Source of the DNA: Bacteroidales bacterium
GTDB lineage: Bacteria; Bacteroidota; Bacteroidia; Bacteroidales; DTU049
Reading direction: 5' to 3'
DNA: 64,000 nucleotides
Assembly: GCA_016937255.1 (NCBI GenBank)
Contig: JAFGWG010000124.1
Location: forward strand, 1,706-65,705
Positions 3,753 through 43,218 of the stretch are shown here, piece after piece. The notes under the pieces were generated by a model, which saw only the letters and a program-made list of their open reading frames with translations, did no database searches and was not told the origin of the DNA. A program made the position numbers and the translations under genes. Numbering within the stretch: the stretch's first letter is position 1; each line of letters begins with the position of its first letter.

Positions 3753-3774
3753 TCATTAATTGAAAGTTCGACCT

Positions 3775-4331: not shown

Positions 4332-4706
4332 ATGGCAGACGTAAAAGCACTCGCTGAAGAATTGGTAAACCTAACCGTTAAAGAGGTAAATGAACTAGCT
4401 GGTATTCTTAAAGAAGAATATGGAATTGAGCCAGCTGCCGCAGCTGCAGTAGTAGCCGCAGCTCCTACAGGTGGTGATGCCGCCGTTGAAGAGAAAACCG
4501 AATTTGATGTAATAATCAAAAGCCCCGGTGCTCAAAAATTAGCAGTTGTAAAACTCGTTAAAGAACTCACTAGTCTTGGACTAAAAGAAGCCAAAGAACT
4601 TGTTGATTCTGCTCCTAGCGCACTTAAGGAAGGAATCTCAAAGGATGAGGCCGAAGCTCTTAAAAAGTCTCTTGAAGAGGCAGGAGCTGAAATTGAACTT
4701 AAATAG
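4332..4706 (+). CDS. rplL: 50S ribosomal protein L7/L12
   Basis: 124 aa. Has an Ala-rich hinge ([16 protein letters not shown]) and the C-terminal motif [19 protein letters not shown]. Confidence 0.97.
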
Positions 4707-4729
4707 TTTCAGTTTTTTAATACGTGGTT

Positions 4730-4770
4730 AAGACCTCTTTCTAAGGATTGAGGTCTTTGCCCGTTTTATG
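4730..4770 (+). terminator. Hairpin between rplL and rpoB (candidate attenuator)
   Basis: AAGACCTC (4730-4737) pairs with GAGGTCTT (4750-4757), followed by TGCCCGTTTT. An rplL-rpoB attenuator is established in E. coli; applying that role here is inference. Confidence 0.5.
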
Positions 4771-4811
4771 TAGCAATACATAATTTATTCAGGGTTATTA
4801 GTCGCAAAACA

Positions 4812-8621: not shown

Positions 8622-8656
8622 TAACATAGTATCCATTAACTGAAATATATCGTTAT

Positions 8657-11600
8657 ATGGCATTCAGAAGAGAAAACGCTCCTAAGAGCACTTTTTCAAG
8701 CATAATCATCAGTCTGGCTTCTCCCGAGAAAATCCTTGAGATGTCTCATGGAGAAGTGACCAAGCCTGAAACTATTAATTACAGGACATACAAACCCGAA
8801 CGCGATGGATTATTCTGTGAGCGTATTTTCGGGCCTGTTAAGGATTACGAATGTCACTGTGGAAAATACAAGCGTATTCGCTATAAGGGAATCGTTTGTG
8901 ACCGCTGTGGTGTTGAAGTAACGGAAAAGAAAGTCCGCAGGGAACGGATGGGCCACATTCAGCTTGTTGTTCCTGTAGCGCATATCTGGTTTTTTCGCTC
9001 ACTTCCTAATAAAATTGGAGCCCTGTTAGGTATTCCTACTAAAAAACTCGAGCAGATTATATATTACGAAAAGTATGTTGTAATCAACCCGGGAATTAAA
9101 GAAGAAGAAGGGGTAAACCAACTCGATTTCTTAAGTGAGGAAGAATATTTCGAGATTCTGGAAACATTGCCCAGAGAAAATCAGGCGCTTGACAATGATG
9201 ACCCTCAGAAATTTATTGCCAAAATGGGTGGTGAAGCTTTGCAGGATTTACTCGGACGTCTCGATCTTGATGAACTTTCATACAGTTTGCGTCATCGTGC
9301 CAATACAGAAACTTCTCAGCAAAGAAAAGCCGATGTTTTGAAGCGTTTGCAAGTTGTTGAGTCTTTCCGCGATGGACAAACACGTATCAACAATAATCCA
9401 GAATGGATGATTGTTAAAGTTGTTCCTGTTATTCCACCAGAACTTCGTCCTTTAGTACCCCTTGATGGTGGTCGTTTTGCATCTTCCGATCTTAACGATC
9501 TCTACCGTCGTGTTATTATCCGCAATAATCGCCTAAAACGCCTAATCGAAATCAAGGCTCCTGACGTGATTCTTCGCAACGAAAAACGTATGCTTCAGGA
9601 ATCTGTTGATAGTCTTTTCGATAACAGCCGCAAGGTAAATGCTGTAAAAACCGAATCAAATCGGGCACTTAAATCTCTTTCAGATAGCCTTAAAGGTAAG
9701 CAAGGACGTTTTCGCCAGAACCTACTTGGTAAACGTGTCGATTATTCAGGTCGTTCGGTAATTGTGGTTGGTCCTGAATTGAAACTTAATGAGTGTGGTT
9801 TACCTAAAGAAATGGCTTCTGAGCTCTTTAAGCCATTTATTATTCGCAAAATGCTCGAAAGAGGCATTGTGAAAACGGTAAAATCTGCTAAAAAGATTGT
9901 TGATCGTAAAGATCCTGTAGTTTGGGATATACTTGAAAACGTATTAAAAGGTCATCCTGTTCTGCTCAACCGTGCTCCTACTTTGCATCGATTGGGTATT
10001 CAGGCATTCCAACCCAAGCTTATTGAAGGGAAAGCCATTCAATTACACCCTCTCGTTTGTACAGCGTTCAATGCTGACTTTGATGGTGACCAAATGGCTG
10101 TTCACGTTCCATTAGGTAATGAGGCAGTGTTAGAAGCTCAGTTGCTCATGCTAGCATCTCATAATATTCTTAATCCTGCCAATGGTGCTCCTATTGCCGT
10201 TCCTTCTCAGGACATGGTACTTGGTCTTTATTATATGACCAAAGGTCGCCCTAGTACTAAAGACAATAAAACACCAGGAGAAGGAATTACTTTCTATTCT
10301 GCACAAGAAGTAATCATTGCGTATAATGAAGGGAGAGCTAATCTTCATGCAATTATTAAGTTGCGTTTGGTTGATGACGAAGGTAAAACCAATATTATTG
10401 AAACTACCGTTGGTCGTGTGCTTTTCAATCAAGTGGTTCCCAAGAGAGTTCCTTATATCAATACACTGCTGACTAAAAAAGCATTGCGTGATATCATTGG
10501 AACTGTTTTGAAACTAACCAGCAATGTTGAAGCGGCTAATTTCCTCGACGATATTAAGGGTCTTGGATTTAGAATGGCTTTTACTGGTGGACTTTCCTTT
10601 AATCTTGGTGATATTATTATCCCGAAAGAAAAAGCCATACTTATTGGTGCAGCCAATACTGAGGTAGAAGAAGTGATGAATAATTATAATATGGGATTCA
10701 TTACCAATAACGAACGATACAACCAGATTATTGATATCTGGACTCATACCAACTCAAATCTCACCAAAATTCTTATTGATAAACTCTCTAAGGATAAAGA
10801 TGGTTTCAACCCTGTGTATATGATGCTTGATTCGGGTGCTCGTGGATCAAAAGAACAGATTCGTCAGCTATCTGGTATGCGTGGTCTGATGGCCAAGCCT
10901 CAAAAATCAGGTGCAACAGGTGGAGAGATTATTGAGAATCCAATTTTGTCAAACTTCAAAGAGGGTCTTTCGGTACTTGAATATTTTATTTCTACTCACG
11001 GTGCGCGTAAAGGTCTTGCTGATACTGCTCTTAAAACTGCTGATGCTGGTTATCTGACTCGTCGATTGGTTGACGTTGCTCAGGATGTAATTATTATGGA
11101 AGATGATTGCGGTACATTAAGAGGATTGATAGTAAGTGCGTTGAAGAAAAACGAGGAAATCGTTGAGTCATTGTATGAGAGAATTCTTGGACGTACTACT
11201 TTACACGATGTGTATCATCCGAATACAGGTGAGCTAATTGCACCTGCCGGAGCAGAGCTTACTGAAGACTTATCAAGAATTATTGATGACAGTCCAATTG
11301 AAGAGATAGAAATTCGTTCTGTACTTACCTGTGAATCTAAGCGTGGAGTTTGTGCCAATTGTTATGGCCGAAATCTTGCAAACGGACGTATGGTACAAAC
11401 CGGAGAAGCTGTTGGAGTAATTGCTGCACAATCTATCGGGGAACCGGGAACTCAGCTTACCCTTCGTACTTTCCACATTGGGGGTGCTGCTTCCAACGTA
11501 ACTATCAATAGTAAAATTGATGCCAAATACGATGGTATTCTTGAAATTGACGAGCTCCGATTCCTGAAAAAGAAAAACGATGAAGGAAAAGAAGCAATGA

Positions 11601-12949
11601 TGGTTATGGGTCGTTCTGCTGAAATGAAAATTCTCGACAAAAAGACTTCTATTGTACTACAATCTGCGAACATTCCTTACGGATCAACATTGTATTTCAA
11701 AACTGGACATGAAGTCAGCAAAGGAGATCTTATTTGCGAATGGGATCCTTATAACGCTGTTATTCTTTCAGATACTGCCGGTAAAGTCGCTTTTGAAGAC
11801 ATCATTGAAGGTGTAACTTTTCGTGAAGAATCTGACGAACAAACTGGATATCACGATAAAGTAATTATCGAAGCCAGGCAGAAAAACAAGAACCCTCATC
11901 TTAAAGTGATGTCTTCAACTAAAGAAGAGCTAAAGCGCTTTGACATTCCAGTAGGCGCCCATCTTATGATAGATGAAGGAACGAGTATTAAGCCCGGAGA
12001 TATTCTTGCAAAAATTCCGAGAACTATTGGTAAAGCTGGTGATATCACTGGTGGTTTGCCACGAGTAACCGAACTTTTTGAAGCAAGAAATCCTTCTGAA
12101 CCTGCAGTTGTTGCTGAAATTGATGGTATTGTTAGTTTTGGCCCTAAGTTGAAACGTGGTAATAAGGAAGTAATCATTACCTCTAAAACCAATGAGGAAA
12201 AACGCTATCTGATTTCAACAACAAAACAAATTCTGGCTCAAGAAAATGACTTTGTAAAAGCAGGTACTTCTTTATCTGATGGAGCATTTTCACCTGCTGA
12301 TATTCTTGCTATTAAAGGACCTACAAAGGTTCAGGAATATTTGGTTAACGAAGTTCAGGAAGTGTATCGTTTACAGGGTGTGAAAATTAACGACAAGCAT
12401 TTTGAGGTGATTGTTCGCCAAATGATGCGTAAGGTTAATATCATGGATCCAGGCGACACTCGTTTTCTTGAGAATGAGATTGTAAATAAACTCGACTTTC
12501 AAGAAGAAAATGATAATATTTTCAACAAAAAAGTTATTGAGGATCCAGGCGATAGCGAAAATTTGAAATCAGGTCAAATAGTATCTGCCAGAAAACTTCG
12601 CGACGAAAATTCTCTGCTTCGTAGAAAAGACAGAAAAGTTATTGAAGCAAGAGATGCACAACCTGCAACTGCTCGTCAAATACTTCAGGGTATTACACGT
12701 GCTGCGCTGCAAACCGAAAGTATGCTGTCAGCTGCTTCCTTCCAGGAAACGACTAAAGTACTTACCGATGCGGCAATTAATGCAAAACGTGATACACTAA
12801 ATGGTCTGAAAGAAAATGTTATCGTTGGTCACCTTATTCCTGCTGGAACAGGTCTGCGCTGTTACGATGATTTAGTTGTTGGATCATTGGAAGAATACGA
12901 AAAACTTATGGCCTCGAAAGAGGAAGAAGAAATCCTTGAAAATAATTAA
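8657..12949 (+). CDS. rpoC: DNA-directed RNA polymerase subunit beta'
   Basis: 1430 aa. Has the zinc-binding [20 protein letters not shown] segment and the catalytic [12 protein letters not shown] motif. Confidence 0.98.
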
Positions 12950-12951
12950 TT

Positions 12952-13269
12952 ATGGACCCAAAAAATCAAAATCCGGAAAATCAATTGAATATTGAATTAA
13001 GTGCTGAAGTAGCTGATGGTACATATGCCAATTTGGCCATCATTACTCACTCACATTCAGAATTTGTTGTCGATTTTATTAATATGATGCCTGGTGTGCC
13101 TAAGGCTCATGTGAAGTCTAGAATTATCATGACTCCTCAACATGCCAAAAGGCTTATGAAAGCGTTACAGGATAATATTATTAAGTTTGAAGCCAATCAT
13201 GGAGAAATTACCGACCAAGACGCGCCGGCTCCTCCTTTCAACATGGTAACTCCAGCCGGAGAAGCATAG
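12952..13269 (+). CDS. DUF3467-like small protein coupled to rpoC
   Basis: 105-aa ORF starting 2 nt after the rpoC stop. The core YANLAIITHSHSEFVVDF...TPQHAKRL matches my recollection of the DUF3467 family. A terminator follows. Confidence 0.6.
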   Translation: MDPKNQNPENQLNIELSAEVADGTYANLAIITHSHSEFVVDFINMMPGVPKAHVKSRIIMTPQHAKRLMKALQDNIIKFEANHGEITDQDAPAPPFNMVTPAGEA

Positions 13270-22872: not shown

Positions 22873-24258
22873 TTATTTATGCACCTTCCTAACAAATTCA
22901 TCTACCTCTTTTACACCGCCTTGGTAAATCAGATATCCGTTATATGGCTCACGTTCGGTAATTTCATCGTTTATTGGAGTGAGCATAATTCTCTTGACTT
23001 CTTCAGGGTCATTGGTTTGACCTAGTGTCCAGCCCAGTTTAATATAGGCTGTTTCGGGCAACATATTGGCAGCAGGAATAATTCCTTTAGCCATTAAATC
23101 GCGGCCTGTATCATATACAAACATATGAGTGTATCCCCAAAGAGTTTGTACGGTCATAAACATGTGAACCCCTTTTGCATGTGCTCTTTCAATGGCTGGA
23201 TATAGCGGTTTATTAATATGCCCCAAACCTGTTCCTGCAATAATAATTCCTTTATAACCAGCATCTACCAATGCATCAATTACATCGGGTTGCATATTTG
23301 GATAATAATAAACAATAGTAACTTTTTCCTCAAAATAAGGCATGATTTTTACCTGTTTATCTTTACGACGAGGCTTATAATCTTGTTTAATAGGCACTAC
23401 GCCCTTACGGGTTACTGTTGCTAGTGGAATATCTCCAATCGTTCTGAAAGTAGATCGATATGAAGAGTGCATTTTTCTTACCCTGGTTCCACGATGCAAA
23501 AAGCCATATTCATCAGATGTAGGGCCAAACATACAAACCATTACTTCTGCGATATCTCCATGTCCGGCAGCCGTCATGGCATGCATTAAGTTAAGTGCAG
23601 CATCTGAGCTTGGACGATCAGAAGAGCGCTGAGAACCCACTAAAACGATTGGGATAGGGGAGTTCTGAATCATAAAGGTTAATGCAGCGGCGGTGTGAGA
23701 TAAAGTATCAGTTCCGTGCCCAATTACAATACCATCGATGCCTTTTTCAATTTCTTCTCCAATAGAGATTGCCAGTTTTTTATACTGTTCGGGGCCCATG
23801 TTTTCGCTAAAAACAGCAAATAGCTTATCAGTTGTAAGGTTGCAAATATCGGCCAACTCAGGAACAGCTCCGTATAGTTCTCCCGGAGTAAATGCAGGAA
23901 TTACCGCCCCTGTACGATAATCGAGACGCGAAGCAATGGTTCCACCAGTTCCAAGTAGCTTTATTTTTGGTAACCCCTCTGTTATAGGAAATTCTTTTTC
24001 CGGAATCTGGTAATTGGCCTTTTTATAGCCTGTTTCCTTCATCCCTGTTACAGTGCCAGTGTCGATACCAATATTATAACCAGTGATAATTTTTAAAACG
24101 ATATGTTTATCATCGTCATTTTCAGACCTGGGAAGCACTGTCCCCTTAAAATCACCACGCGTAGTTTGAATTTCCGCCTGACCCCATACTCGTACCTGAT
24201 ATTTCTTAAGTAAGTCTAATGCCTCACCTTTATATCCCTGAAAAAAATCTTCACTCAT
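22873..24258 (-). CDS. gatD: Archaeal-type Glu-tRNA(Gln) amidotransferase subunit D (GatD)
   Basis: 461 aa. Has a GatD-specific N-terminal domain (DDKHIVLKIITGYNIGI) followed by an asparaginase-type core: GTGGTIASRLDYRTGAV, GHGTDTL, GSQRSSDRPSSDAALN, VRKMHSS, GTGLGH. Its start overlaps the gatE stop (TAATG). Confidence 0.85.
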   Translation of the reverse strand: MSEDFFQGYKGEALDLLKKYQVRVWGQAEIQTTRGDFKGTVLPRSENDDDKHIVLKIITGYNIGIDTGTVTGMKETGYKKANYQIPEKEFPITEGLPKIKLLGTGGTIASRLDYRTGAVIPAFTPGELYGAVPELADICNLTTDKLFAVFSENMGPEQYKKLAISIGEEIEKGIDGIVIGHGTDTLSHTAAALTFMIQNSPIPIVLVGSQRSSDRPSSDAALNLMHAMTAAGHGDIAEVMVCMFGPTSDEYGFLHRGTRVRKMHSSYRSTFRTIGDIPLATVTRKGVVPIKQDYKPRRKDKQVKIMPYFEEKVTIVYYYPNMQPDVIDALVDAGYKGIIIAGTGLGHINKPLYPAIERAHAKGVHMFMTVQTLWGYTHMFVYDTGRDLMAKGIIPAANMLPETAYIKLGWTLGQTNDPEEVKRIMLTPINDEITEREPYNGYLIYQGGVKEVDEFVRKVHK

Positions 24259-26255
24259 TATTCTGAAATTTTCTGTTTAACAACTTGATACAAGTTCTCA
24301 AGTCCCATGTTTCCATAGGCCATTCTCGACAATTGACCCATTATCCAATCGATTCGATTTTCTGTTGAATCACTATAGCAAATAGAGCTAAATTTTTCGC
24401 TAAGGAAATCGATCTTCTCCGTAATTTCGTCTTGCTGACGTTCTTTAAATTTAATACTGGTAAGAACAGATTCAAGCTCCATTTTTGGATAATGATACAG
24501 GACAGGAAGCATTTTGTATGCTAGTTTTAAGTTGTAATTTTTCTTTTTTAGAAATACCAGCAGATCTTCAATAATTTCATAATTGAAACCTTCTCCTTTT
24601 TCAAAATGACCTTCTACCCATTTCATACGATGGCCAATAAAATTACCCAGCCATTTGGGAGAGATTTTATGCTTTTTTGAAATAGTATCAATAATTGGGA
24701 AAAGATTGCGCTTAAAAATATAATTATAAGTGCTTTCTGCAACACCCCATTCTTTTAGTTGGTTATAACGGGCAACCACATCTGTGGGCAAGCCTTTGCT
24801 TAATTCATCAATAACTTCATTGGTTAATGGAATTGGTGCTGAATCGGTATCAGGATACATACGGTCGGCTCCAGGCAATACCCTTTCAAAAATAGTTGTG
24901 CCGTTTTCAAAACTTTTTCTGGTTTCTTCCGGAACACCTTCAAAGGCCATTTTACAACGCTCTTCAATGGTTTCCAAAGCGGTTTTCATATCCTCTTCCG
25001 GACCCCAAACTATAAGTTGAGCATCATCTGGCCCGGCATTGAGCATAGGAGCAATAATGTCAAGATCAAGATCGGTAATAATCGGCTCAAACTGCTCGGT
25101 ATGTAGCAGATTTGGCTTTTCGAGACATGCCACAACTTTTAATCGATCACTGATTTCATCAGCAAACATTTTCCCGGGTTGAGTAAAATGACTCATAATG
25201 CCTTTGAATCCGGGAAGATTTACTGCCACTAGTTTTTCACCACTATCTTTTGCAACTTTTAAAGGCTCATAAGTGATTTCAAACATGTCAAAATCAAGGA
25301 AGCCATGGCTCATTTCCCAAGCTTTATAATCAGCAAATTTCGATTGAAGCTTTTCTCTAATTTTCAACAATGCCCACTGGCGAAAACACTCATTATGAGT
25401 AAGTTCTGGAATCCATTTCGTATGTGCAACACCCTTAATTTCTACACGAGTACCGCCTTTACAACTCACATTCACATCCTCACGACCTGCACCCATCCCA
25501 ACGCGAACTTTTCCGGTACTACGATTTAGAAAGCGAATATAATTACAAGCTTCCATCACCTCATCGGGATTTACCATATCGGGATAAGTTACCGTTTCAA
25601 TCAAAGGCATACCCAAACGATCGGTTTTGTAAACACGAGTATGACCGATATCGCTGATTTCACGACAACTATCTTCTTCAATACTCAATTGAATCAGGCG
25701 AACATTTTTATTTTTCAATGGAATTTCACCTTCAACCCCAATAATGGCTGTACGCTGAAATCCTGTTGGAATACTTCCATCTAAATACTGTTTACGGGTT
25801 ATGTGAACTTCACCAACAATATTCAATTTCGAAAGCAGACTTATTTCAATAGCGATATCGAGTGCCTGTCTGTTTATGGGAAATGGTGGAGTATCATCCA
25901 CTTCGTATGTACATGTAGTTTGATGCTTCAAACGATATACAATTTCCTTACGGGTTTTAAATTCCATTAAAGCGGTACCATCATACTCTCCCAGCTCGCT
26001 TAGCGTTGGGCGCATATGACGAATTACTTCTGCATCGTAATCATCACTATCGTGAAAACGACCTGCAGGGCAATTGCAAAAAAGTTTTTTATCCGTTAGT
26101 AATTGCTGATGAACCTCTAGCCCCGACATAAAGCCTATATCATCATAGGTTTTTTGCGTAGCTTCCTTTCTTGGCACATAAGAAACCTCTTTCTTAGTCT
26201 TTTCGTAATTCGCTCTCGGATCAAAGTGGTTTTCCATTTTCTGATAATTATACAT
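24258..26255 (-). CDS. gatE: Archaeal-type Glu-tRNA(Gln) amidotransferase subunit E (GatE)
   Basis: 665 aa. Motifs GLEVHQQLLTDKKLFCNCP, EVDDTPPFP, GFQRTAIIG, DRLGMPLIETVT, VEIKGV, and a PEETRK...MYPDTD region, collinear with archaeal GatE as I remember it. Confidence 0.85.
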   Translation of the reverse strand: MYNYQKMENHFDPRANYEKTKKEVSYVPRKEATQKTYDDIGFMSGLEVHQQLLTDKKLFCNCPAGRFHDSDDYDAEVIRHMRPTLSELGEYDGTALMEFKTRKEIVYRLKHQTTCTYEVDDTPPFPINRQALDIAIEISLLSKLNIVGEVHITRKQYLDGSIPTGFQRTAIIGVEGEIPLKNKNVRLIQLSIEEDSCREISDIGHTRVYKTDRLGMPLIETVTYPDMVNPDEVMEACNYIRFLNRSTGKVRVGMGAGREDVNVSCKGGTRVEIKGVAHTKWIPELTHNECFRQWALLKIREKLQSKFADYKAWEMSHGFLDFDMFEITYEPLKVAKDSGEKLVAVNLPGFKGIMSHFTQPGKMFADEISDRLKVVACLEKPNLLHTEQFEPIITDLDLDIIAPMLNAGPDDAQLIVWGPEEDMKTALETIEERCKMAFEGVPEETRKSFENGTTIFERVLPGADRMYPDTDSAPIPLTNEVIDELSKGLPTDVVARYNQLKEWGVAESTYNYIFKRNLFPIIDTISKKHKISPKWLGNFIGHRMKWVEGHFEKGEGFNYEIIEDLLVFLKKKNYNLKLAYKMLPVLYHYPKMELESVLTSIKFKERQQDEITEKIDFLSEKFSSICYSDSTENRIDWIMGQLSRMAYGNMGLENLYQVVKQKISE

Positions 26256-26383
26256 TGTGACCTGTACCTTACAAGTGATTTATTCCCCAAAAGTATAATA
26301 AATCGTCAAATAATAATAATCTTGGTGTAAAAATTGTTTCATTCTAAAGAATTCCTAATTTTACACTATAGAAATAAAAAAAC

Positions 26384-27748
26384 ATGCGTATCCTATCAGC
26401 CATTCTATTTACCTTTTTCTGGGGGATGATTTTTGCTCAATCTGGGCCGGCGTTTATCCTGAAAGGAGAAATCGAGAATTTTCAACGTCCCGAAACATTT
26501 TATTTGCTTAGCGTAAGAGGTTCTGCCATGGAAGTTGCAGACAGCATGCATAGCGAAAACGGGAAATTTCTTTTCATTGCCGATTCCATTTTGCCAACAG
26601 GTGAATACAATATTTTTTGGGGAGATGACAATATTTTACCCGTACTTATTGCCGGCGAAAAATACATTGAAATTCATGCCGATGAGCTGGAGCCATCTTT
26701 GTCACCAAAATGCATTGCTTCCGAAGAAAATAAAATTTATTACCTCTTTAAAAATATTGAATACAGAATCGACAGTCTTATTTATATCGGCGATTATTAT
26801 TACCAGGAGGGAATGTTTGAGAAACTTAATGAACTGCAGGAACTCATGTCTGATCTTGAAAAAGAAGCGATGAACTCTGCAGATTCAATTACTGCAATAC
26901 ACCCAAATTCTTTTGCCTTGAAAATTTTCAAAGCTTCTATTCCCCCAAATTTTTACGTATATCAAAAAGAGCACCCTGATCATGGATTTGAAAATGAAAC
27001 AGATTTTCTCCGCAGACATTATTTCGATAATATAGACAAAAACGATAGTAATTTGGTTCATACCGGAATACTATATGATGCTTGTAGTTTTTATATTCGC
27101 AACCTCACCAAAGAAAAATCGATAGAAGGTTATCAGAAAGCTTCCGATTTTATTATTTCCAGCTTTTCGCTCAATGATGCACAGTTTGAATATGTAGTAG
27201 AACTTCTGCTTAATACTTTCGAATCGGCTGATATGGGAGAAGTGTATCTTTATATTTTCGACACCTATTTGGAAACCTGCCACGATGGAATTCCCGGCGA
27301 GGAAGAACGCAAAGCGCTGGCTTTCAAAAACCTGAAAAAAGGCAGTTCTGCTCCCGAACTTAGTGCCGCCGATCGAGATGGGAAAATACATTCCTTAAGC
27401 GATTATAAAGGCAAAGTTTGTATTTTGATGTTTTGGGCAAGCACCTGCTCGCACTGCGAAGAAGCCATGCCACATGTTGTTGATTTTGTGAATAAGGAAA
27501 ACAATGCAGATTTGGTTTTTCTCAGCTTTTCACTCGATACTAATCAAGATCAATGGATTAATGGTTTGTTGCGCAACGAAATGCCAGAGCCGGCTTTGAG
27601 CGATTTAAAAGGTTTTGATGGTGAAAATGCATTGAACTGGTATATTTGGGCAACACCAACCTTTTTTATCATAGACCAGGAAGGAAAAATTTACAGCAAA
27701 CCCATGACTTTAAGCCAAATGGAGGCTGCGGTTGGGGAATTGTTATAA
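26384..27748 (+). CDS. Secreted TlpA/AhpC-like thiol-disulfide oxidoreductase with a large N-terminal domain
   Basis: Signal peptide present. The C-terminal thioredoxin fold carries a WASTCSHC (CxxC) motif preceded by GKVCILMFW. Confidence 0.7.
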   Translation: MRILSAILFTFFWGMIFAQSGPAFILKGEIENFQRPETFYLLSVRGSAMEVADSMHSENGKFLFIADSILPTGEYNIFWGDDNILPVLIAGEKYIEIHADELEPSLSPKCIASEENKIYYLFKNIEYRIDSLIYIGDYYYQEGMFEKLNELQELMSDLEKEAMNSADSITAIHPNSFALKIFKASIPPNFYVYQKEHPDHGFENETDFLRRHYFDNIDKNDSNLVHTGILYDACSFYIRNLTKEKSIEGYQKASDFIISSFSLNDAQFEYVVELLLNTFESADMGEVYLYIFDTYLETCHDGIPGEEERKALAFKNLKKGSSAPELSAADRDGKIHSLSDYKGKVCILMFWASTCSHCEEAMPHVVDFVNKENNADLVFLSFSLDTNQDQWINGLLRNEMPEPALSDLKGFDGENALNWYIWATPTFFIIDQEGKIYSKPMTLSQMEAAVGELL

Positions 27749-27865
27749 TGTATTTGGACCGACCCAAAATAATGGCAACGCTACTAAACCCTAAGCATAG
27801 ATTCCGTTGGGAGAGCTAATATAGTGAGTTTTTTTGAAATTGGTTTTACAATATTGGGAGAATTA

Positions 27866-28016
27866 AAAAAGCCTGTCTTGCATCTTCGAGCATCATGCGC
27901 AGCTTGATCTCGGAGCATGCATAAAGTTAAGCCTAAGGGCTATCTGATTTCATGCGAAGCGATCCGCCTTCACCACCATCAACGGATGCGCTCCGATGAA
28001 GGATTATCAATCTGTG
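27866..28016. repeat. Copy 1 of a ~150-nt structured direct repeat (candidate ncRNA or cis-regulatory element)
   Basis: Near-identical to 28111-28259. It holds a 16-bp hairpin at 27879-27921 with two single-C bulges. An 8-bp stem at 27959-27991 has a loop (CCTTCA) that can pair with TGAAGG at 27997-28002. Confidence 0.7.
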
Positions 28017-28050
28017 GTTTAAGAGGTAACTTGGGCTTCAGTAAATAGTT

Positions 28051-28075
28051 TCGGCGTAGATGGATTCTACGCCGA
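28051..28075. other. 10-bp GC-rich hairpin between the two repeat copies
   Basis: TCGGCGTAGA / tggat loop / TCTACGCCGA. No adjacent T or A run. Confidence 0.6.
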
Positions 28076-28110
28076 GGGGGGACTTGGAGACTTCTGAAAT
28101 CTATTCGTTG

Positions 28111-28259
28111 AAAAAGCCTTTCTTGCATCTTCGAACATCATGCGCAGCTTGATCTCGGAGCATGCATAAAGTTAAGCCTAAGGCTATTTAATTTCATGCG
28201 AAGCGATCCGCCTTCACCACCATCAACGGATACGCTCCGATGAAGGAATTTAATCTGTG
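28111..28259. repeat. Copy 2 of the ~150-nt structured direct repeat
   Basis: Aligns by eye to copy 1 with about ten differences, including two 1-nt indels. The period is 245 nt. Confidence 0.7.
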
Positions 28260-28277
28260 TTCCAAAAAAATCAGTGC

Positions 28278-28295
28278 ATCCGATAGCTATCGGAT
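28278..28295. promoter_or_regulatory. 18-bp perfect palindrome ATCCGATAG|CTATCGGAT (candidate operator or hairpin)
   Basis: Perfect dyad symmetry read directly. It lies 71 nt upstream of the nuoE-like ATG at 28366. Confidence 0.4.
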
Positions 28296-28365
28296 AGTGG
28301 CTAAGATAAATTCACAAAACACCATTTCAAAAAAAATCTTTATCTTTATATGAAAATCTTTAGAT

Positions 28366-28830
28366 ATGAAATACGAGGCTGGTTTGCAAAAAGACAGAGC
28401 TGAAAAGAAAAGTCTGATTATTGAGCATCTACATTCGCTACAAGATGCCAATCCAAAACAGTTTTTAAGCGAAGACGACCTTAAAAAATGCGCCAAAGAA
28501 TTCAACCTTACCATGGCAGAAGTTTATGGAATTGCCAGCTACTATTCCATGTTCAGCCTCAAGCCCAGAGGTAAATATATCATCAGACTTTGCAAATCAT
28601 CGGTTTGCCATATGATGGGCGCTGAAAACATGGCTTCAAAAATTGAATCTCTTTGCAAAACCAAATTCGGTAATACATCTGCCAACGACCTTTTTACCCT
28701 CGAATATGCAGAATGCCTCGGACAATGTGAAAAAGCACCAGCCATGATGATCAACAAAAATGTGCATGGATCCCTCAACCCTGAGAGCCTGGAAAAAATC
28801 ATTGAAAATCTGAAAAAAGAAAACGCATGA
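28366..28830 (+). CDS. NuoE/HoxE-like thioredoxin-fold [2Fe-2S] ferredoxin subunit
   Basis: 154 aa. Cys pattern C-x4-C (CKSSVC) ... C-x3-C (CLGQC), typical of NuoE/24-kDa subunits. It overlaps the next gene by 4 nt (ATGA). Confidence 0.8.
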   Translation: MKYEAGLQKDRAEKKSLIIEHLHSLQDANPKQFLSEDDLKKCAKEFNLTMAEVYGIASYYSMFSLKPRGKYIIRLCKSSVCHMMGAENMASKIESLCKTKFGNTSANDLFTLEYAECLGQCEKAPAMMINKNVHGSLNPESLEKIIENLKKENA

Positions 28831-30044
28831 TTGCTGAAAAAAGAATAAGTCTGGCTCGTATTGAAAAAATTAATGCCGATAGCATTGATGATTCTTTGAA
28901 AGCCGGCGCCTACAATGGTTTGAAAAAGGCCTTAACGATGAATCCGGAGGAGATGATCGAAAAATTCGAAAAATCTGGTCTTCGTGGGCGTGGCGGAGCA
29001 GGATTTCCAACCGGACTTAAGCAAAAATTTACCCGCAGTTCTTGCTTAGATTGTGAAAAATACATCATTTGCAATGCCGATGAAGGCGAGCCGGGCACTT
29101 TTAAAGATAGAGTTATCATGGAGCGCGACCCGCACATGCTTATTGAAGGCATGATAATCGCCGCTTATGTAATTGGTGCATCACGAGGTTTTATTTATAT
29201 CAGAGGGGAATACCAACGATCCATTGAGGTGCTTCAAAAAGCCATTGAGGATTCAAACAAAAATGGTTTTTTAGGAGAAAATGTTCTCGGATCGGGGTTC
29301 AATTTCAATCTGGAATTACGCTTAGGTGCGGGATCATATCTTTGCGGAGAAGAGCTCACACTATTAGAATCTTTGGAAGGAAAACGCGGCTATCCAAGAA
29401 TAAAACCTCCTTTTCCAGCCCAAAAAGGACTTTGGGAATCGCCCACATTAATTAATAATGTCGAAACTTTCTCTCATTTACCTGCAATTCTGAATGAAGG
29501 TTTAGATTGGTACACTTCTTTGGGAACTGAAGAAAGCAAAGGAACCAAAATATTTACAATCACGGGAAGAGTTCAAAAACCGGGCTTTTACGAAATGGAA
29601 ATGGGGTGTACTCTTCGCGAACTACTCTTTGACATAGCCGGTGGTATGAAAGACGGCTATGAATTCAAAGGAGCATTGCTAGGCGGAGCTGCCGGGACCT
29701 TTGTTGACGAAAGTTTTCTGGATATTCCTCTTGCCTACGAAACTTTGAAAGCTCGCGGCGCTACACTTGGTTCAGGAGCTATTCTGGTTTTGGACCAGGA
29801 AACAGATATGCCATCATTATTGCATAATCTTATGGATTTCTTTAAGCATGAAAGCTGTGGAAAATGCGTTCCTTGTCGTGTAGGAACAACCATGCTCACA
29901 GAAATGGCCGCCAAACTTAAAAATGAACCGGAATTAATTCACAAAATGACAAAAGAAGCGCACTATATGGCAGAAACTTCACTTTGTCCGCTAGGGCAAA
30001 GCCCGATATTGCCTTTGAAATCGTATCGTGAGTATTACAGCTAA
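28827..30044 (+). CDS. NuoF/HoxF-like NAD(H)- and FMN-binding [4Fe-4S] subunit
   Basis: 405 aa. Motifs GLRGRGGAGFPTGLK, CNADEGEPGTFKDR, and ESCGKCVPCRVGT...SLCPLG (N3-cluster cysteines). Confidence 0.85.
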   Translation: MIAEKRISLARIEKINADSIDDSLKAGAYNGLKKALTMNPEEMIEKFEKSGLRGRGGAGFPTGLKQKFTRSSCLDCEKYIICNADEGEPGTFKDRVIMERDPHMLIEGMIIAAYVIGASRGFIYIRGEYQRSIEVLQKAIEDSNKNGFLGENVLGSGFNFNLELRLGAGSYLCGEELTLLESLEGKRGYPRIKPPFPAQKGLWESPTLINNVETFSHLPAILNEGLDWYTSLGTEESKGTKIFTITGRVQKPGFYEMEMGCTLRELLFDIAGGMKDGYEFKGALLGGAAGTFVDESFLDIPLAYETLKARGATLGSGAILVLDQETDMPSLLHNLMDFFKHESCGKCVPCRVGTTMLTEMAAKLKNEPELIHKMTKEAHYMAETSLCPLGQSPILPLKSYREYYS

Positions 30045-30853
30045 TCCCCCGCCACTCCAATATATTCCACTACACCACCACAGCTAAAAAAGCCTGCCCC
30101 GTTATTGCTTACATTTCCAATTGTATTTGCAGGAATCATGTTCACCAACCCGTTATTAAACTGTGTTTCAATAAGAATTTCACGCAAAAATGCGGCATAT
30201 TCCTGTGAAATACTATATCGGCGTTCTCTAATTTTTGTGCCTTTTGGAATAATCACATTCTGATCAGGACCCGTGAGAAATTGCCCTACATCTAATGAAG
30301 TAAGGGTATAATAATACAGTGTTTTTTGGGCATAAGCACTATCAAACCCATCTAGATGACGCCAATCCAATAAAACTTCATACAATGCCGGATTATTTGG
30401 ACTATAGTTTGAACAAACCCACGAGATACGGTATGTACTGTCGTCGTCATTATATAAACTCAATTGTAATGGAGAGAACAATACCGCAGGCAAAAGGGTA
30501 TCTGAAGCAAAATATGATTTAGAATTGTATTGAACTTCTAAAGTATATTTTTTATTCACTATGCCATACACAGTAGAATCTGTGAGATAATAGCCCGGTC
30601 TTAGAGGATCTTCCTGAAGCACAAATATGGTATCTGGGCCATGAATTTGAACCACTGCTCCGGTTAAGGGTAAAATTCCTTGTTCCAGATCAGGCGAAGG
30701 CAAACTCAGTAAAACCTCATGCGATTTGCTTTCATTTGTAAACATGGCATCTACAACAATGTCGGGCAAAGGTCCTTCATCAAAAGTCCAATCCTGCTGC
30801 TTTTCACAAGAAAAGAAAATGAAAATCATTGCTATGTAAACCCATTTTTTCAT
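30041..30853 (-). CDS. DUF4249-like lipoprotein partnered with the TonB receptor
   Basis: Signal plus lipobox (FFSCEK). Its start overlaps the upstream receptor gene by 4 nt. TBDR/DUF4249 pairs are common in Bacteroidota; the family assignment is from memory of that architecture. Confidence 0.5.
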   Translation of the reverse strand: MKKWVYIAMIFIFFSCEKQQDWTFDEGPLPDIVVDAMFTNESKSHEVLLSLPSPDLEQGILPLTGAVVQIHGPDTIFVLQEDPLRPGYYLTDSTVYGIVNKKYTLEVQYNSKSYFASDTLLPAVLFSPLQLSLYNDDDSTYRISWVCSNYSPNNPALYEVLLDWRHLDGFDSAYAQKTLYYYTLTSLDVGQFLTGPDQNVIIPKGTKIRERRYSISQEYAAFLREILIETQFNNGLVNMIPANTIGNVSNNGAGFFSCGGVVEYIGVAGD

Positions 30854-33507
30854 CGCAGCTTGAATTGATAGGTTAAGGAAGGAATAAATCCTGCAACGGC
30901 CACAGACACCGGCACATAATTGAGTTCATCACTGAATTCAACCGGAATAAGGAAATTGCCGTTATCATCCACAATTTTATTATATGTCATCGATACCGGA
31001 TTGTGACGAGCATATACATTATAGATGGAAAGTTCGAGGTAATGATTATAGTTCTTTTCAGACTTATTTAAACGTAATCGAGCTGAGAGATCCAAACGAT
31101 GATAATCAGGTAAACGACTATTATTCAACTCATTATATACTGGGACCGCCATATTATTATAATAGTAGAATCCAGTTGGGGAAGTGAAAGGCATTCCGCT
31201 AGAGAATGTCCAGTTCATCGACAATTCCCAGCGATATGAAGGAGTCCATGTCATATGCATATTTATGCTGTGAGGGCGATCCCATATAGTTGGATATACC
31301 AATCCATTATTAAGTTCATCTGTTTGCATTTGGGTTTTTGACCATGTATATCCAATCCAACCTCTGACTAAGCCTTCTTTTTTCCTGATCATGGTCTCAA
31401 TTCCATAAGACTCTATTTCTCCCTCAAACACTTCTCCTTCCAGCAAAGGATTGAAAAGCAATGAAGCATGGCCAGTATAATCGAGCTGATGATATAATCT
31501 ACGCCCAAATGCTTCGACAGAAAACTGTGAACCAGGAATCAGATTCTGATCGAAATAACCAATTGAAATATTATCGGCTTGTTGAGGCGCAATTGTAGGT
31601 GTTGGAGGAATCCAGGCTTCAGTTGTTGTGAACGGACTCAATGAATTATTTAATATCTGAAGAAACTGAGTACTTCTGGTATAGGCCGCTTTTATTCTCA
31701 AACCGGGCTTAGGCACATAGCTTGCAGAAAATCGTGGTTCGAAAGCAGAAAAACTTATGATTTTATCACCGCCATTGAAATCAACCGTATCGGTAACTTG
31801 TTGTGCATCATCAAAATAATACACAGTTGTGGGGCCATGATTTGTCCACAATGTGGAACGAAAACCGTAATTCAGAAAGAATTTTTCGCCAAGCTGTTGC
31901 TCAATAGTAGAATAATAAACCGATGTGCCACTTAGAAATTTTGGAGTAAAAGGCAAGTACGATTCAAGCGAATCTTGTCGCAATTGAATATTTCCGGGAT
32001 CAGAATCATATCCGCTCAGTTCTAGCCCTTGTCTCCACGTAAGTTTCGGATTTATAAACCACGAAAAATCACTTTTTAAAGTTCCCTGATAGATGTGTGA
32101 AGCCCAGAAATCCTGATTCTCTTTCCATATCTGTATGAAGTAATTATATCGGCTATAAATAAAAGTGGTATTGCAAAACAGCTTATTATTGAACACATGA
32201 TTCCACCGAAGTGTTCCAACATTATTTGACCAGTTGATACCATAAGTACGATAAGCATTGTTTTTAATGAAATACCGATCTGCACCACCATAAACTGTGA
32301 GAAAAACTCTGTTATTATTATTGATTTTTAGATTCAGTTTTGCGTTAAAATCAGAAAAGCCAAGCAGAAGTTCATTGTTTTGCAAAACATTTCGATTGAT
32401 CCAACCCAGGTTTGAGGTTCGCAATGCGATATAATAAGAAGAAACATCTTTTTTAAATGGCCCTTCAAAGGCAAGATTTGTTGCAAATTGATTGGTAGAA
32501 CCATTCATGCTAAAATGCTGCATATTTCCATCTTTCATTTGCATATCTACCACAGATGATAGTCGTCCACCATATTGCGCCGGGAAATCGCTTTTGTATA
32601 CATCGATGTTTTTGATGGCATCGGGAACTAAGGTGGTAAAGAATCCAAAAAGGTGCGAAGCATTATAAACAGGTGCCTCATCAATTAAAATAAGATTCTG
32701 ATCTCCTTTGCCGCCCCGCACATAAAAAATGGAAGAACCATCGCTATGAGAAATGATCCCGGGAATAGATTGCAAGCTCTTTATGGGATCAGATTCGCCA
32801 GCAAATCCGGGCATTTCTTGCACGGTTTTCGGATCGATTTTCATCACTCCTGCTTTGATGTTTTCTCGCCAATCATCTTCTTCTTTCGCACTCACAATCA
32901 CAACACTCATTGATAAATCTTTGGGTGCCATTTGCACACTATGTCTACGGTTTTCCCGAATTTCAAACTCAATTTTCTGTTGCTTGAAACCAATGTATGA
33001 ATAGACCATTGTGTATTTTCCGGGAGGAAGTGAAAGGGAATAAAATCCATAATTATTGGTAATGGTTCCGGTAGTGGTTCCATCAATGTGAATTGTTGCA
33101 CCAATAAGAACCTCGCCCGATGTAGAATCGGCAAGATAGCCACTGAGTGTAAATTTTTGAACCTGAGGTTCTGCATCACTTTTAGGCGTTTTACCTGCTT
33201 TAAGAACCACTTGTTTTTCCACCAGAGACCAATTAATGCCAAGTGGACTTAGAATATCGTTCAAGACTACACGAATAGACTTATTATTACATGTATAAGA
33301 CAGTTGTTTTTCAAGAGGAATTTTCGAAGGATTATAAGAAAAATGGACATTCCCTTTGCTACTAATTTCATTCAAAGCTGTTTTCAAAGTAGCGTTATTC
33401 AGGTTCAGTGAAATCTTTTTTTGCAGGTTTTGCCCCTGCAATAGACCTGAAACAAAGAGCAGAATAATTACCGACCCGTATGTGCGAAGTAGTTGACGCA
33501 TACACAA
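30850..33507 (-). CDS. TonB-dependent receptor with an N-terminal signalling (STN-like) extension and a carboxypeptidase-regulatory-like domain
   Basis: 885 aa. The N-terminal segment ISLNLNNATLKTALNEISSKGNVHFSY...VVLK is FecA-type STN-like. Next comes GYLADSTSGEVLIGATIH (CarbopepD_reg-like), then a plug region (DPIKSLQSIPGI), and a C-terminal beta-barrel ending in ...YQFKLR. Confidence 0.8.
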   Translation of the reverse strand: MCMRQLLRTYGSVIILLFVSGLLQGQNLQKKISLNLNNATLKTALNEISSKGNVHFSYNPSKIPLEKQLSYTCNNKSIRVVLNDILSPLGINWSLVEKQVVLKAGKTPKSDAEPQVQKFTLSGYLADSTSGEVLIGATIHIDGTTTGTITNNYGFYSLSLPPGKYTMVYSYIGFKQQKIEFEIRENRRHSVQMAPKDLSMSVVIVSAKEEDDWRENIKAGVMKIDPKTVQEMPGFAGESDPIKSLQSIPGIISHSDGSSIFYVRGGKGDQNLILIDEAPVYNASHLFGFFTTLVPDAIKNIDVYKSDFPAQYGGRLSSVVDMQMKDGNMQHFSMNGSTNQFATNLAFEGPFKKDVSSYYIALRTSNLGWINRNVLQNNELLLGFSDFNAKLNLKINNNNRVFLTVYGGADRYFIKNNAYRTYGINWSNNVGTLRWNHVFNNKLFCNTTFIYSRYNYFIQIWKENQDFWASHIYQGTLKSDFSWFINPKLTWRQGLELSGYDSDPGNIQLRQDSLESYLPFTPKFLSGTSVYYSTIEQQLGEKFFLNYGFRSTLWTNHGPTTVYYFDDAQQVTDTVDFNGGDKIISFSAFEPRFSASYVPKPGLRIKAAYTRSTQFLQILNNSLSPFTTTEAWIPPTPTIAPQQADNISIGYFDQNLIPGSQFSVEAFGRRLYHQLDYTGHASLLFNPLLEGEVFEGEIESYGIETMIRKKEGLVRGWIGYTWSKTQMQTDELNNGLVYPTIWDRPHSINMHMTWTPSYRWELSMNWTFSSGMPFTSPTGFYYYNNMAVPVYNELNNSRLPDYHRLDLSARLRLNKSEKNYNHYLELSIYNVYARHNPVSMTYNKIVDDNGNFLIPVEFSDELNYVPVSVAVAGFIPSLTYQFKLR

Positions 33508-33558
33508 AAATACATTTAATTCTTTTTAGGGGAATAAAACTTTATTCGATAGGCAGTA

Positions 33559-34563
33559 TTATTCACAGGGTTCGCCATTGACAATATAGCCACGACCATC
33601 TTTTTTGATTTCCAGATCAAGGGTGGATTCCAGAACAGTTAGCACCGATTCAAGAGTTTGGTCTTCGAAAGACACACTGAGTTTGCAATTGCCACAAGCA
33701 GGATTGCTGAGTTTAATAGGAATATTATAGGCTTTGGAAACTATATTCACAACACGATCAAGACGTTCATTTTCAAATGACATGCTACGTGTTTTCCACA
33801 CCATGAAATATTCTTCGAAAGTATTGCCAACGCTGATCTCTTTTTTATCAGGAGTAGCTTCAGCTTGCTCACCGGGTTTCAATATTGTTCTTTTGTCTGG
33901 AGTATCCTTATGATATAGTGCAACAGAACCATTAATTAATATCACTTGTGCTTTTCCGTCGGGACCATTCGTATTAACATAAAATGATGTTCCTAAAACT
34001 TCCACACGCATATCTCCCGCTGAAACAATAAATGGTTTTTCGGGGTTATGAGCCACTTCAAAATGTGCTTCGCCTGTTAACCGAACAGTACGTTGATCAT
34101 TTTCGTTTATATCTTTTGGGTACTCAAGGCTTGAACCAGCATTTAAGGTAATTGTAGAGCCATCTGGCAATATTGTTTCTATCACTTCATTTTGAGCCAG
34201 AATCTCGATGGTTTTATCTGCTCCAAAGATGATATTTCTTAATAAAAATCCAATAGTAAGGATAAGAAGAACAGCTGCTGCAATACGGGTAACAATTCGC
34301 AAAGTTCTACGACGACCCATTTCTATTTTCTTTCCACTGCTTAATTTTGCCTGCAATGCCAGCCATTCCTCATCAATGTCGATATTTTCCATTATCAAGT
34401 CTTGGCTCATGGCGTGCCAGACCTTACGGAATTGAGTAAAAACATCGCAGTTTTCTTCAGACTTGCGCAACCAAGAAGAAAGCTCGGCAATTTCATTCTC
34501 GCCGGCTTCACCCGAAAAGTATCGGTTTATCAGGTTTTCATAATATGTGCTTTCTTCAGTCAT
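33559..34563 (-). CDS. FecR-family anti-sigma factor
   Basis: 334 aa. Has a cytoplasmic N-terminus, a single TM helix (IAAAVLLILTIGFLL), a periplasmic FecR-like region (LPDGSTITLNAGSSL; GEAHFEV) and a C-terminal domain. It sits between the sigma factor and the TBDR. Confidence 0.8.
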   Translation of the reverse strand: MTEESTYYENLINRYFSGEAGENEIAELSSWLRKSEENCDVFTQFRKVWHAMSQDLIMENIDIDEEWLALQAKLSSGKKIEMGRRRTLRIVTRIAAAVLLILTIGFLLRNIIFGADKTIEILAQNEVIETILPDGSTITLNAGSSLEYPKDINENDQRTVRLTGEAHFEVAHNPEKPFIVSAGDMRVEVLGTSFYVNTNGPDGKAQVILINGSVALYHKDTPDKRTILKPGEQAEATPDKKEISVGNTFEEYFMVWKTRSMSFENERLDRVVNIVSKAYNIPIKLSNPACGNCKLSVSFEDQTLESVLTVLESTLDLEIKKDGRGYIVNGEPCE

Positions 34564-34612
34564 TTTATGCGCTCTTTGTCTCTATTACACTAAAGACAGT
34601 GTTTACCCCTAT

Positions 34613-35206
34613 TTAGTTCAGTAAAAAAAATAATTCTTTATATGGAAACATACTCAAAAGCAGAATGGGGAGGTAAGGCCCAAGTCGCTCTCGAAGATGT
34701 TTCAATGCTTTACCCATCTGATTTTCAACTGTTTTGATAGAAATACCCAAATGATCCGCAATTTCTTTGTATTTCATATTTTCCTCACGACTTAATAAAA
34801 ACACTTCGCGACATTTTTCTGGTAAATCAGCTATTGCATTTTGAATTTCTCCTTTTAGCTCTCTTGTCATAATGCCACTATCGGCCATTTGAGATTTTTC
34901 ATCCATCAGACCTTCAAATTCTAGCACATTGCGGTCGAATTTTTTTTGATCACGTAGATAATTCAGGGAGCGGTTATACACCATAGTGGTGATATATGAT
35001 TTGAGGTTCTTCTCCTCATCCATAGTTTCGCGTTTTTCCCAAATATAGATAAAGCAATCCTGCACAATAGAACGGGCAGTTTCCATATCTTTAACATACT
35101 TAATCGAAAAAACACAAAGATTCTTAAACTCTTTTCTGAATAGTTCTTCAAAAGAGTCCTTTCTTAATCCTTTAGGTTGTATGGTTCGTATTTCTGTCAA
35201 TGCCAA
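34613..35206 (-). CDS. ECF-type RNA polymerase sigma-70 factor
   Basis: 197 aa. Has region 2 (ARSIVQDCFIYIWEKR) and the region 4 HTH (MKYKEIADHLGISIKTVENQMGKAL). Confidence 0.85.
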   Translation of the reverse strand: MALTEIRTIQPKGLRKDSFEELFRKEFKNLCVFSIKYVKDMETARSIVQDCFIYIWEKRETMDEEKNLKSYITTMVYNRSLNYLRDQKKFDRNVLEFEGLMDEKSQMADSGIMTRELKGEIQNAIADLPEKCREVFLLSREENMKYKEIADHLGISIKTVENQMGKALKHLRERLGPYLPILLLSMFPYKELFFLLN

Positions 35207-42761: not shown

Positions 42762-43070
42762 TTAGTCTTCACGCTCTTCAATAGCTTGATCAATCTCGTC
42801 TTCTATACGATCACCACATATTTCAACGGCATCTTCAAATTCTTTGAGTTTAACCTCGTCGTTTTTATACTTTTCTTGAAACTCCTTGTACATGTTTTCA
42901 CATTCTTCGTCTTTTTTGTCGAGTTCATCCTCGCTGGCACCATCTTTAATCAATTGTACCATCTCGTCTCCGCAGTTGCAAAGGGTATCGGCATCTGATT
43001 TTGGTCCGCCACCACCACAAGAAGTAAAAGTAAATACCATTAAGGCAATAATCATTAATTTCCAGGTCAT
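42762..43070 (-). CDS. Small acidic Cys-containing lipoprotein
   Basis: 102 aa with lipobox FTSCGG. The mature part is very Glu/Asp/Lys-rich and has 5 further Cys (CNCGDE, EECEN, EICGD). Confidence 0.45.
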   Translation of the reverse strand: MTWKLMIIALMVFTFTSCGGGGPKSDADTLCNCGDEMVQLIKDGASEDELDKKDEECENMYKEFQEKYKNDEVKLKEFEDAVEICGDRIEDEIDQAIEERED

Positions 43071-43218
43071 AATTCATTACATTTATTTGGGCCTACTCTT
43101 ATTCGCTTTTCGGCATCCGCGATAGACTTCAAATATACAAAAATATTTCCAACACCCTTTGTTTGTTTCAGAAAAAATCAGTTTTCCGGAAATTCCTACA
43201 TTTGTAAAGGGATAAATA

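Follow-up and report, generated by a model that had tools for sequence, protein, structure and literature searches.

Among described systems, the closest to the element considered here is ssr9 of ISPpu9, an insertion sequence (IS) of the IS110 family in Pseudomonas putida: it resembles MITEs (miniature inverted-repeat transposable elements) without having classical inverted repeats, is found as orphan copies and is repeated in tandem in some strains (PMC12288879). Here, we analysed a 64,000-nucleotide (nt) stretch of a Bacteroidales genome (assembly GCA_016937255.1, contig JAFGWG010000124.1), hereafter called the window, which carries two direct copies of a ~150-nt non-coding unit between a gene encoding a thioredoxin-like protein and the NuoE- and NuoF-like genes (nuoEF). 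The region between the thioredoxin-like gene and the nuoEF promoter is an indel and recombination hotspot: even nearly identical strains differ in what it contains. We put at about one in two the probability that the units are a lineage-restricted, palindrome-rich non-coding repeat module residing in this hotspot, duplicated or shuffled there and devoid of inverted-repeat ends. Since close strains have zero, one or two copies of the unit and distant relatives have none, the units do not behave as a sensor or leader of nuoEF.

Like ssr9, the unit is small, non-coding and intergenic, has a structured RNA-like core, varies in number between strains and occurs in tandem (PMC12288879). However, ssr9 has A' and B' boxes that match the ends of the IS, inserts in repetitive extragenic palindromic (REP) sequences, forms minicircles and is accompanied by seven ISPpu9 transposase genes (PMC12288879), whereas the sequences searched yielded neither a transposase nor end boxes nor a second locus for the unit. 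Since the transposase, the end boxes and the REP target were not found here, the similarity is a resemblance and not a membership.

REP sequences, BIMEs and REPINs, which are mobilised by RAYT proteins, are also intergenic imperfect palindromes located 3' of genes, form two-hairpin units and make clusters that vary between strains, but REP sequences are only 20-40 nt long, are present in tens to hundreds of copies and bear a GTAG or CGTC tag (PMC3116915, PMC3733652). The unit was rejected as a REP element since it has no GTAG/CTAC or CGTC/GACG, its hairpins are 43-52 nt long and it is known from a single locus. No RAYT (TnpA-like) gene was found among the open reading frames (ORFs) of the window.

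Bacterial MITEs, such as Correia/NEMIS, ERIC and the MITE of Porphyromonas gingivalis (PMC4596501), are like the unit in being ~100-160 nt long, non-coding, intergenic and strain-variable. They differ from it by their terminal inverted repeats, target-site duplications and genome-wide dispersal, none of which was found for the unit. Its left end matches the reverse complement of its right end at background level (local alignment score 14), the flanks of unit 1 (GGGAGAA/GTTTAAG) and of unit 2 (CTATTCG/TTCCAAA) contain no direct repeat, and no dispersed copy turned up when the 64-kb window, a further 10 kb of this genome and ~50 kb from related loci were searched. An earlier interpretation made from the letters alone, hereafter the sequence-only reading, had considered that the unit might turn out to be a MITE with many dispersed copies, inverted-repeat ends or target duplications; nothing of the kind was observed in the sequences searched.

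Three other types of systems were compared with the locus. Tandem riboswitches, such as those for glycine, contain aptamers that are conserved across species upstream of orthologous genes, between the promoter and the start codon. The units are likewise two similar structured elements in series, upstream of a gene and on the same strand, but they are strain-specific, lie upstream of a promoter-like block and match no Rfam family. Neisserial NIMEs, in which dRS3 repeats flank RS units at many loci, resemble the hotspot, going by their description only, in being mosaics of short repeat modules that differ between strains and have short junction repeats; the hotspot differs from them by having a single 15-nt junction repeat, in one strain and at one locus. 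As expected of IS200/IS605 or IS110 elements, the unit has subterminal hairpins and neither inverted-repeat ends nor target duplication: its first long hairpin begins 16 nt from its left end and its second one stops 16 nt from its right end. No cognate TnpA, TnpB, IscB or IS110 recombinase gene was found in the window or among the strain-specific genes.

Organization of the locus

The units are located in a gap of 617 nt between the thioredoxin-like/AhpC-TSA gene (26384-27748, +) and the NuoE-like gene (28366-28830, +). This is by far the largest non-coding gap of the window, which is otherwise compact (most gaps are shorter than 150 nt). The features of the gap are as follows (positions are those of the window; z compares the folding energy with that of shuffled sequence).

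27749-27862: 'pre' segment, 37% GC like the window, common to other strains
27863-28016: repeat unit 1, 154 nt, 47% GC, non-coding (repeat search and blastn)
27865-28309: strain-variable segment, with the units, the spacer and hairpin H4
27879-27921: hairpin 1 of unit 1, imperfect, 16-18 bp with single-C bulges (unit 2 equivalent 28124-28166)
27930-27941: small hairpin AGCC-UAAG(G)-GGCU, 4 bp, between the two long hairpins
27949-28000: hairpin 2 of unit 1, with a 12-16-nt loop (unit 2 equivalent 28193-28244)
28017-28107: spacer module, 46% GC, holding hairpin H3
28049-28077: hairpin H3, strong, with a 12-bp GC-rich stem (z -5.6/-7.4)
28108-28259: repeat unit 2, 152 nt, 44% GC, 93.5% identical to unit 1
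28260-28365: 'post' segment, 28% GC
28277-28296: hairpin H4, weaker (z about -2.3), present in contig L021
28310-28365 (+): conserved nuoE promoter-proximal block, with TATCTTTA at 28341-28348

The two units align as direct copies over 154 columns (E=5e-62, blastn against the window). They differ at exactly 10 positions, two of which are 1-nt indels, and the repeat search splits them into two blocks, 27863-27938/28108-28183 (96% identity, spacing 245) and 27938-28003/28182-28247 (95%, spacing 244). These results bear out the sequence-only reading, which had described two copies of ~150 nt with ~93-95% identity and about ten differences including two 1-nt indels; the ends of the units were refined to the coordinates listed above. 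The spacer sequences had been described as unrelated, and comparison of the pre, spacer and post segments with one another indeed detected no relationship.

The gap had also been read as free of ORFs of at least 60 amino acids (aa) apart from an antisense ORF of 75 aa at its 3' edge, and this ORF (28287-28514) is indeed the sole one of that length. Both units contain stops in all six frames, and their small ORFs are not kept between copies. No tRNA or tmRNA was found in the gap region. The GC content reaches 44-47% over unit 1, the spacer and unit 2, compared with 37% in pre, 28% in post and 38% in the window. The GC-rich block thus coincides exactly with unit 1, the spacer and unit 2, and the pre and post segments look native.

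Variation of the locus among close strains

Contigs of other strains were traced, in other samples, through proteins that cluster with the flanking ones at 90% identity or more. On the left side, L020 is 95.5% identical to the window over 23384-27864, and its homology stops at the first bases of unit 1, where unrelated DNA follows. This strain has no unit at the left junction, and the left edge of unit 1 corresponds to its breakpoint at 27864. On the right side, the identity of L017, L018 and L019 with the window is ~94% through nuoEF, and homology starts only at 28310. Since the homology of L020 ends at 27864 and that of the three others resumes at 28310, the variable segment corresponds to 27865-28309. 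L017 covers the entire gap: it has a different upstream gene and a homolog of H3 (89% over 37 nt) and lacks any unit.

Three other contigs carry all or part of the unit. L021 and L022, ~99% identical to the window in the DNA that they share with it, contain a unit's 3' half together with the spacer as far as H3 (99% identical in L021). An unrelated segment of 113 nt, partly common to L017, then takes the place of 28079-28268, which holds unit 2 in the window, and the match returns from 28269 on. In L023, the thioredoxin-like gene is followed by two additional minus-strand genes, then by the 3' half of pre and by a unit that starts at the same left junction as unit 1 of the window. At this locus, strains with 94-99% identity in the flanks therefore carry the unit twice, once or not at all. 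Furthermore, the unit of the JGI strains is a mosaic, of the unit 2 type at 27875 and 27946 and of the unit 1 type at 27988 and at the 3' end, which fits an exchange between copies. In several independent assemblies, contigs break inside the units, as expected for a repeat or for mixed alleles.

Other modules of the hotspot also vary. In L021/L022, an exact 15-nt direct repeat, AATCTGTGGTTTAAG (L021 66-80 and 145-159), brackets a 64-nt module containing H3. It consists of the last 8 nt of the unit and 7 nt of flank, and the window holds its first copy only (28009-28023). This repeat could be a recombination or duplication junction. A recurring junction motif, AATCTGTGG|TTTAAG-like, was considered at the borders of the modules and rejected, since only the exact 15-mer duplication of L021 is statistically solid and the rest is AT-rich similarity. 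Hairpin H3 is kept in strains without units (L017 453-489; L021 102-133), and two of its stem changes in other strains lead to G.U pairs on the plus strand. H3 may form a module of its own, for instance a terminator or a processing site.

The two extra genes of L023 (177-1405, -) encode a 125-aa protein and a predicted lipoprotein of ~284 aa, neither of which has a Pfam family. The motif GGGAGTACTAATATAGTGAGTTTTTTTGA occurs twice in L023, upstream of each of these genes, and its copy in the window lies at ~27810-27840. Since the window keeps one copy of GGGAGTACTAATATAGTGAGTTTTTTTGA, the pre segment, which is conserved in L020, looks like native DNA and is probably what remains of a minus-strand promoter/5' untranslated region. 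On the other side of nuoEF, a DUF6922 and AbiEii gene pair is present between nuoF and the DUF4249 gene in L017 (2407-3287), L018 (1820-2700) and L021 (2057-2700). AbiEii is a nucleotidyltransferase of type IV toxin-antitoxin/abortive-infection systems. Since the strain of the window lacks this pair (at ~30040), nuoEF has variable DNA on both sides.

Comparison with related species and position of the nuoE promoter

Four relatives, whose NuoE is 70-75% identical to that of the window, keep the gene order: GatE-like, thioredoxin-like, NuoE, NuoF, DUF4249 and TonB-dependent receptor. In these genomes, the gap upstream of nuoE is only 97, 96, 93 and 18 nt long, versus 617 nt here, and none of them has units upstream of the orthologous nuoEF. 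Their gaps can be aligned only over the last ~60 nt before the ATG of nuoE. Among close strains, the block 28310-28365 (~56 nt before the ATG) is 93-99% identical in all cases, and it is the only block of the gap that is conserved in all the genomes compared.

Within this block, TATCTTTATAT is invariant in L005, L008, L009 and the window and lies at a fixed distance from the ATG, ~18 nt upstream. The sequence TATCTTTA fits TAnnTTTG, the -7 promoter consensus of Bacteroidota, at 7/8 positions and is the sole plus-strand match to TAnnTTTn in the region. Since this conserved promoter-like block sits downstream of both units, the nuoE promoter is likely located 3' of them, as far as sequence conservation and motif content can tell.

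Predicted structure of the units

Each unit is predicted to fold into three elements, hairpin 1, a 4-bp mini-hairpin and hairpin 2. Hairpin 1 folds as drawn in the sequence-only reading, with an energy of -20.8 kcal/mol (z -3.5) on the plus strand and -16.4 kcal/mol (z -2.1) on the minus strand. Hairpin 2 has 16 bp and a 16-nt CA-rich loop on the plus strand (-16.8 kcal/mol, z -2.2) and 19 bp including G.U pairs on the minus strand (-23.7 kcal/mol, z -2.7). For this second element, an 8-bp stem closed into an H-type pseudoknot had been proposed. The stem was recovered, and in the minimum-energy fold it is lengthened to 16 bp through a UUCAU/AUGAA pairing. The pseudoknot gained no support: since this lower stem uses the same bases and nothing varies there, the CCUUCA/UGAAGG pairing is an unsupported competing alternative.

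At the scale of whole units, the z scores are modest (-1.9/-2.6 on the plus strand, -0.9/-1.5 on the minus strand), and the consensus fold reaches -43.4 kcal/mol on the minus strand versus -39.8 kcal/mol on the plus strand. The strand preference of the hairpins is mixed, as would be the case for DNA palindromes. As regards covariation, 0-1 pairs vary among the two near-identical copies and the partial strain copies. Two differences between copies had been singled out earlier, and both observations hold on the plus strand: position 27988 falls on a bulge, and G27890A disrupts a pair. Read on the minus strand, the latter turns G-C into G.U and preserves the pairing.

Further hairpins had been noticed after each unit, and both were found, as H3 and H4. 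On the minus strand, H4 resembles a terminator, with a T7 run coming after it.

Searches for families and further copies

The sequence-only reading had matched the unit to none of six riboswitch consensuses (cobalamin, Moco, ZTP, fluoride, glycine and Mn), and the searches agree with it. No match to Rfam 15 was obtained in the gap on either strand when the whole window was searched at gathering score, and no relevant match appeared at E ≤ 10 over 27700-28420 on both strands. No further copy of the unit was detected in the window, in an additional 10 kb of this genome or in related loci totalling ~50 kb. With filters off, a covariance model of the unit recovered the known copies only from the window and 16 fetched loci; these loci include the additional 10 kb of this genome, of which ~74 kb were thus searched in total.

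Larger collections were scanned with short patterns. A 22-mer of hairpin 1 had two matches in a genome collection, both in unrelated phyla; they are attributed to chance since nothing beyond the seed is common. In a metagenome collection, a 27-mer of hairpin 2 had no match, and the two matches to a gapped pattern built from the basal arms of hairpin 1 were GC-rich and due to chance. The absence from this collection is weak evidence, since it missed the JGI contig L021, which contains the exact 27-mer. Pattern scans of a viral collection gave no match, and neither did plasmids and phages when the whole gap was compared with them by sensitive blastn. Moreover, six-frame peptides of the insert, searched in order to catch spurious ORFs called in other copies of the unit, had no match at E ≤ 10 among 5.8 billion proteins. 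No transposase, recombinase or nuclease gene was identified in the window or among the strain-specific genes.

Nature of the units

The reading that we retain, at a probability of about one half as stated above, is that of a repeat module carried by a recombination hotspot. The unit would be non-autonomous and would depend, for being copied or moved, on host recombination or on an enzyme whose gene lies elsewhere in the genome. The second copy may result from a local duplication, or may be a divergent allele brought in by recombination. If read through, the hairpins would act as passive stable structures of the transcript-end or insulator type and not as ligand sensors, and the unit would have no role in the regulation of nuoEF.

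Several observations weigh against this reading. A clean empty site was seen in no strain, and the strains differ by replacements and not by simple insertions. The units have neither terminal inverted repeats nor target duplications, and no transposase or recombinase genes were found in the window or among the strain-specific genes. Since no other copy of the unit was found, dispersal, which is the defining trait of a mobile repeat, was not shown. Lastly, the differences between the copies avoid the stems (1/10 falls in paired columns, P~0.01, or P~0.09 when the frayed ends are excluded), which could reflect selection on structure, as for a functional RNA.

This last point leads to an unlikely yet arguable alternative, already considered by the sequence-only reading, in which the units are a paralogous pair of independently transcribed small RNA (sRNA) genes, recently acquired and duplicated in this strain, the minus strand being the likelier one. 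Each gene would end in hairpin 1 followed by a U5-6 run. The units are richer in GC and in structure than the surrounding DNA, the differences between copies spare the stems, and several features point to the minus strand: its consensus fold is slightly better, the sole stem substitution is a G-C to G.U change there and a broken pair on the plus strand, the homology between copies ends 2 nt past the T-run (GGCTTTTTTAA / GGCTTTTTCAA), and a relaxed -7-like box, TAACTTTA, is present inside each unit. However, no exact TAnnTTTG box was found and relaxed matches occur at chance rate. A hairpin followed by a T5-6 run had been reported on this strand by the sequence-only reading; the run is present, but it begins 9 nt past the stem and the terminator scan does not flag it. 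Furthermore, the minus-strand z scores of the whole units are low, the units are not conserved in relatives or close strains, and they have no match in Rfam.

Somewhat less probable is that the unit is an undescribed self-contained mobile RNA module, namely a structured RNA gene of ~150 nt that lacks inverted-repeat ends. It might correspond to an orphan RNA of the guide or bridge type, or to an sRNA in a non-autonomous element, that would be copied between positions of the hotspot by an enzyme encoded elsewhere and would have no sequence relative in current RNA or repeat databases.

An equally doubtful explanation is that an earlier rearrangement or att-like recombination at the hotspot left the units behind as functionless debris, which was duplicated once and is now decaying. 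That the locus is a mosaic of unrelated short modules across strains, that the H3 module of L021 is bracketed by the exact 15-nt direct repeat AATCTGTGGTTTAAG and that no partner genes were found at the locus are all consistent with debris. Against it, each long hairpin beats shuffled sequence (z -2.1 to -3.5), and the hairpins are intact in both copies, with the differences outside the stems.

We consider it improbable, and slightly more so than debris, that the unit is an orphan module of a mobile element without inverted-repeat ends, mobilised in trans and carrying the structured RNA of this element. Candidates would be an sRNA/bridge-RNA module of the IS110 family or a palindrome-associated element of the IS200/IS605 type. 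The presence of a hairpin near each end of the unit, the lack of terminal inverted repeats and target duplications, the copy number differences between strains and the tandem duplication seen here would all fit, and ssr9 of ISPpu9 behaves alike, with orphan copies and a tandem duplication in some strains (PMC12288879). However, no IS110, TnpA, TnpB or RAYT gene was found in the window or in the fetched loci, the HEARO and IS605-associated motifs of Rfam were unmatched even at E ≤ 10, no second locus was found in the window, the 10 kb more or the related loci, and the likeness between hairpins 1 and 2 is unconvincing.

Finally, a tandem ligand-sensing leader or riboswitch controlling nuoEF, which the sequence-only reading had proposed given two structured elements per unit, a tandem layout that recalls tandem riboswitches and a position upstream of nuoE on the same strand, is largely refuted and very improbable, since the units are absent from four relatives and from several strains with 94-99% identical nuoEF, a conserved promoter-like block sits between them and the ATG, Rfam gives no match, and neither a terminator nor a start-codon-sequestering helix joins a unit to the start of nuoE.

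Other identities rejected

Integron attC sites are imperfect hairpins that end in mutually pairing core sites, RYYYAAC and GTTRRRY. The unit is neither an attC site nor a gene cassette: its ends are unpaired, it has two separate internal hairpins instead, and, on inspection of the sequence, the bases after each AAC are not complementary to those before a 3' GTT. Hairpins 1 and 2 were also compared as diverged copies of one palindrome, as in a REP doublet, and the support was weak (p 0.03-0.12). An inverted repeat at 27818-27847/28317-28346 was discarded as the ends of an element, since AT-rich pairs of similar quality are found between random sites of the window. A type I toxin-antitoxin system was rejected since the small ORFs are not hydrophobic and are not kept between copies. 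The units are not a template/variable pair of a diversity-generating retroelement either, since their differences are not adenine-specific and they lie outside coding regions.

Other features of the window

The window begins with a region of core genes for translation and transcription (1-13269). It includes five clustered tRNA genes (Thr, Tyr, Gly, Thr, Trp), an ORF of 395 aa (465-1652), NusG (2011-2553) and a run of ORFs of up to 1,269 and 1,430 aa. NusG is 100% identical in several other samples, and SecE and ribosomal protein L11 flank it in strain contigs. This order looks like the usual one of tuf / secE-nusG / rplKAJL / rpoBC, the check covering NusG and its neighbours in L013 only.

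Upstream of the thioredoxin-like gene, adjacent genes (22873-26255, -) encode a GatD-like protein (asparaginase domains and GatD_N) and a 665-aa GatE-like protein, whose GatB_N catalytic domain contains a large insertion. The pair is kept in the relatives L008 and L020. GatD/GatE is usually described as an archaeal Glu-tRNA(Gln) amidotransferase, and it is found here in a Bacteroidales genome. Downstream of nuoEF and convergent with it, an extracytoplasmic function (ECF) sigma factor, a FecR-like anti-sigma factor, a TonB-dependent receptor with an STN domain and the DUF4249 gene (30041-35206, -) form a trans-envelope signalling cluster.

Further downstream, 43090-43123 (-) matches the DUF805b RNA motif of Rfam with 37.2 bits (gathering score 35.6), directly 5' of a 102-aa minus-strand ORF (42762-43070) without Pfam family. 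Moreover, two tandem paralogous genes (50452-57308, +) encode gingipain-like C25 peptidases of 1151 and 1132 aa that carry C-terminal sorting domains of type IX secretion; an 85-nt stretch is 72% identical between the two genes.

Significance

The main value of these results is negative: a convincing tandem structured element beside a redox operon proves to be no conserved regulator, and the comparison of strains exposes this more clearly than folding does. They also place in the Bacteroidales/Marinilabiliales lineage a hotspot that varies by its hairpin modules, by two extra genes in one strain and, in others, by a toxin-antitoxin pair just downstream of nuoF. The unit itself, an orphan sequence, keeps its two long hairpins well and, if transcribed or mobile, would represent a new small RNA-bearing module from a poorly studied group.

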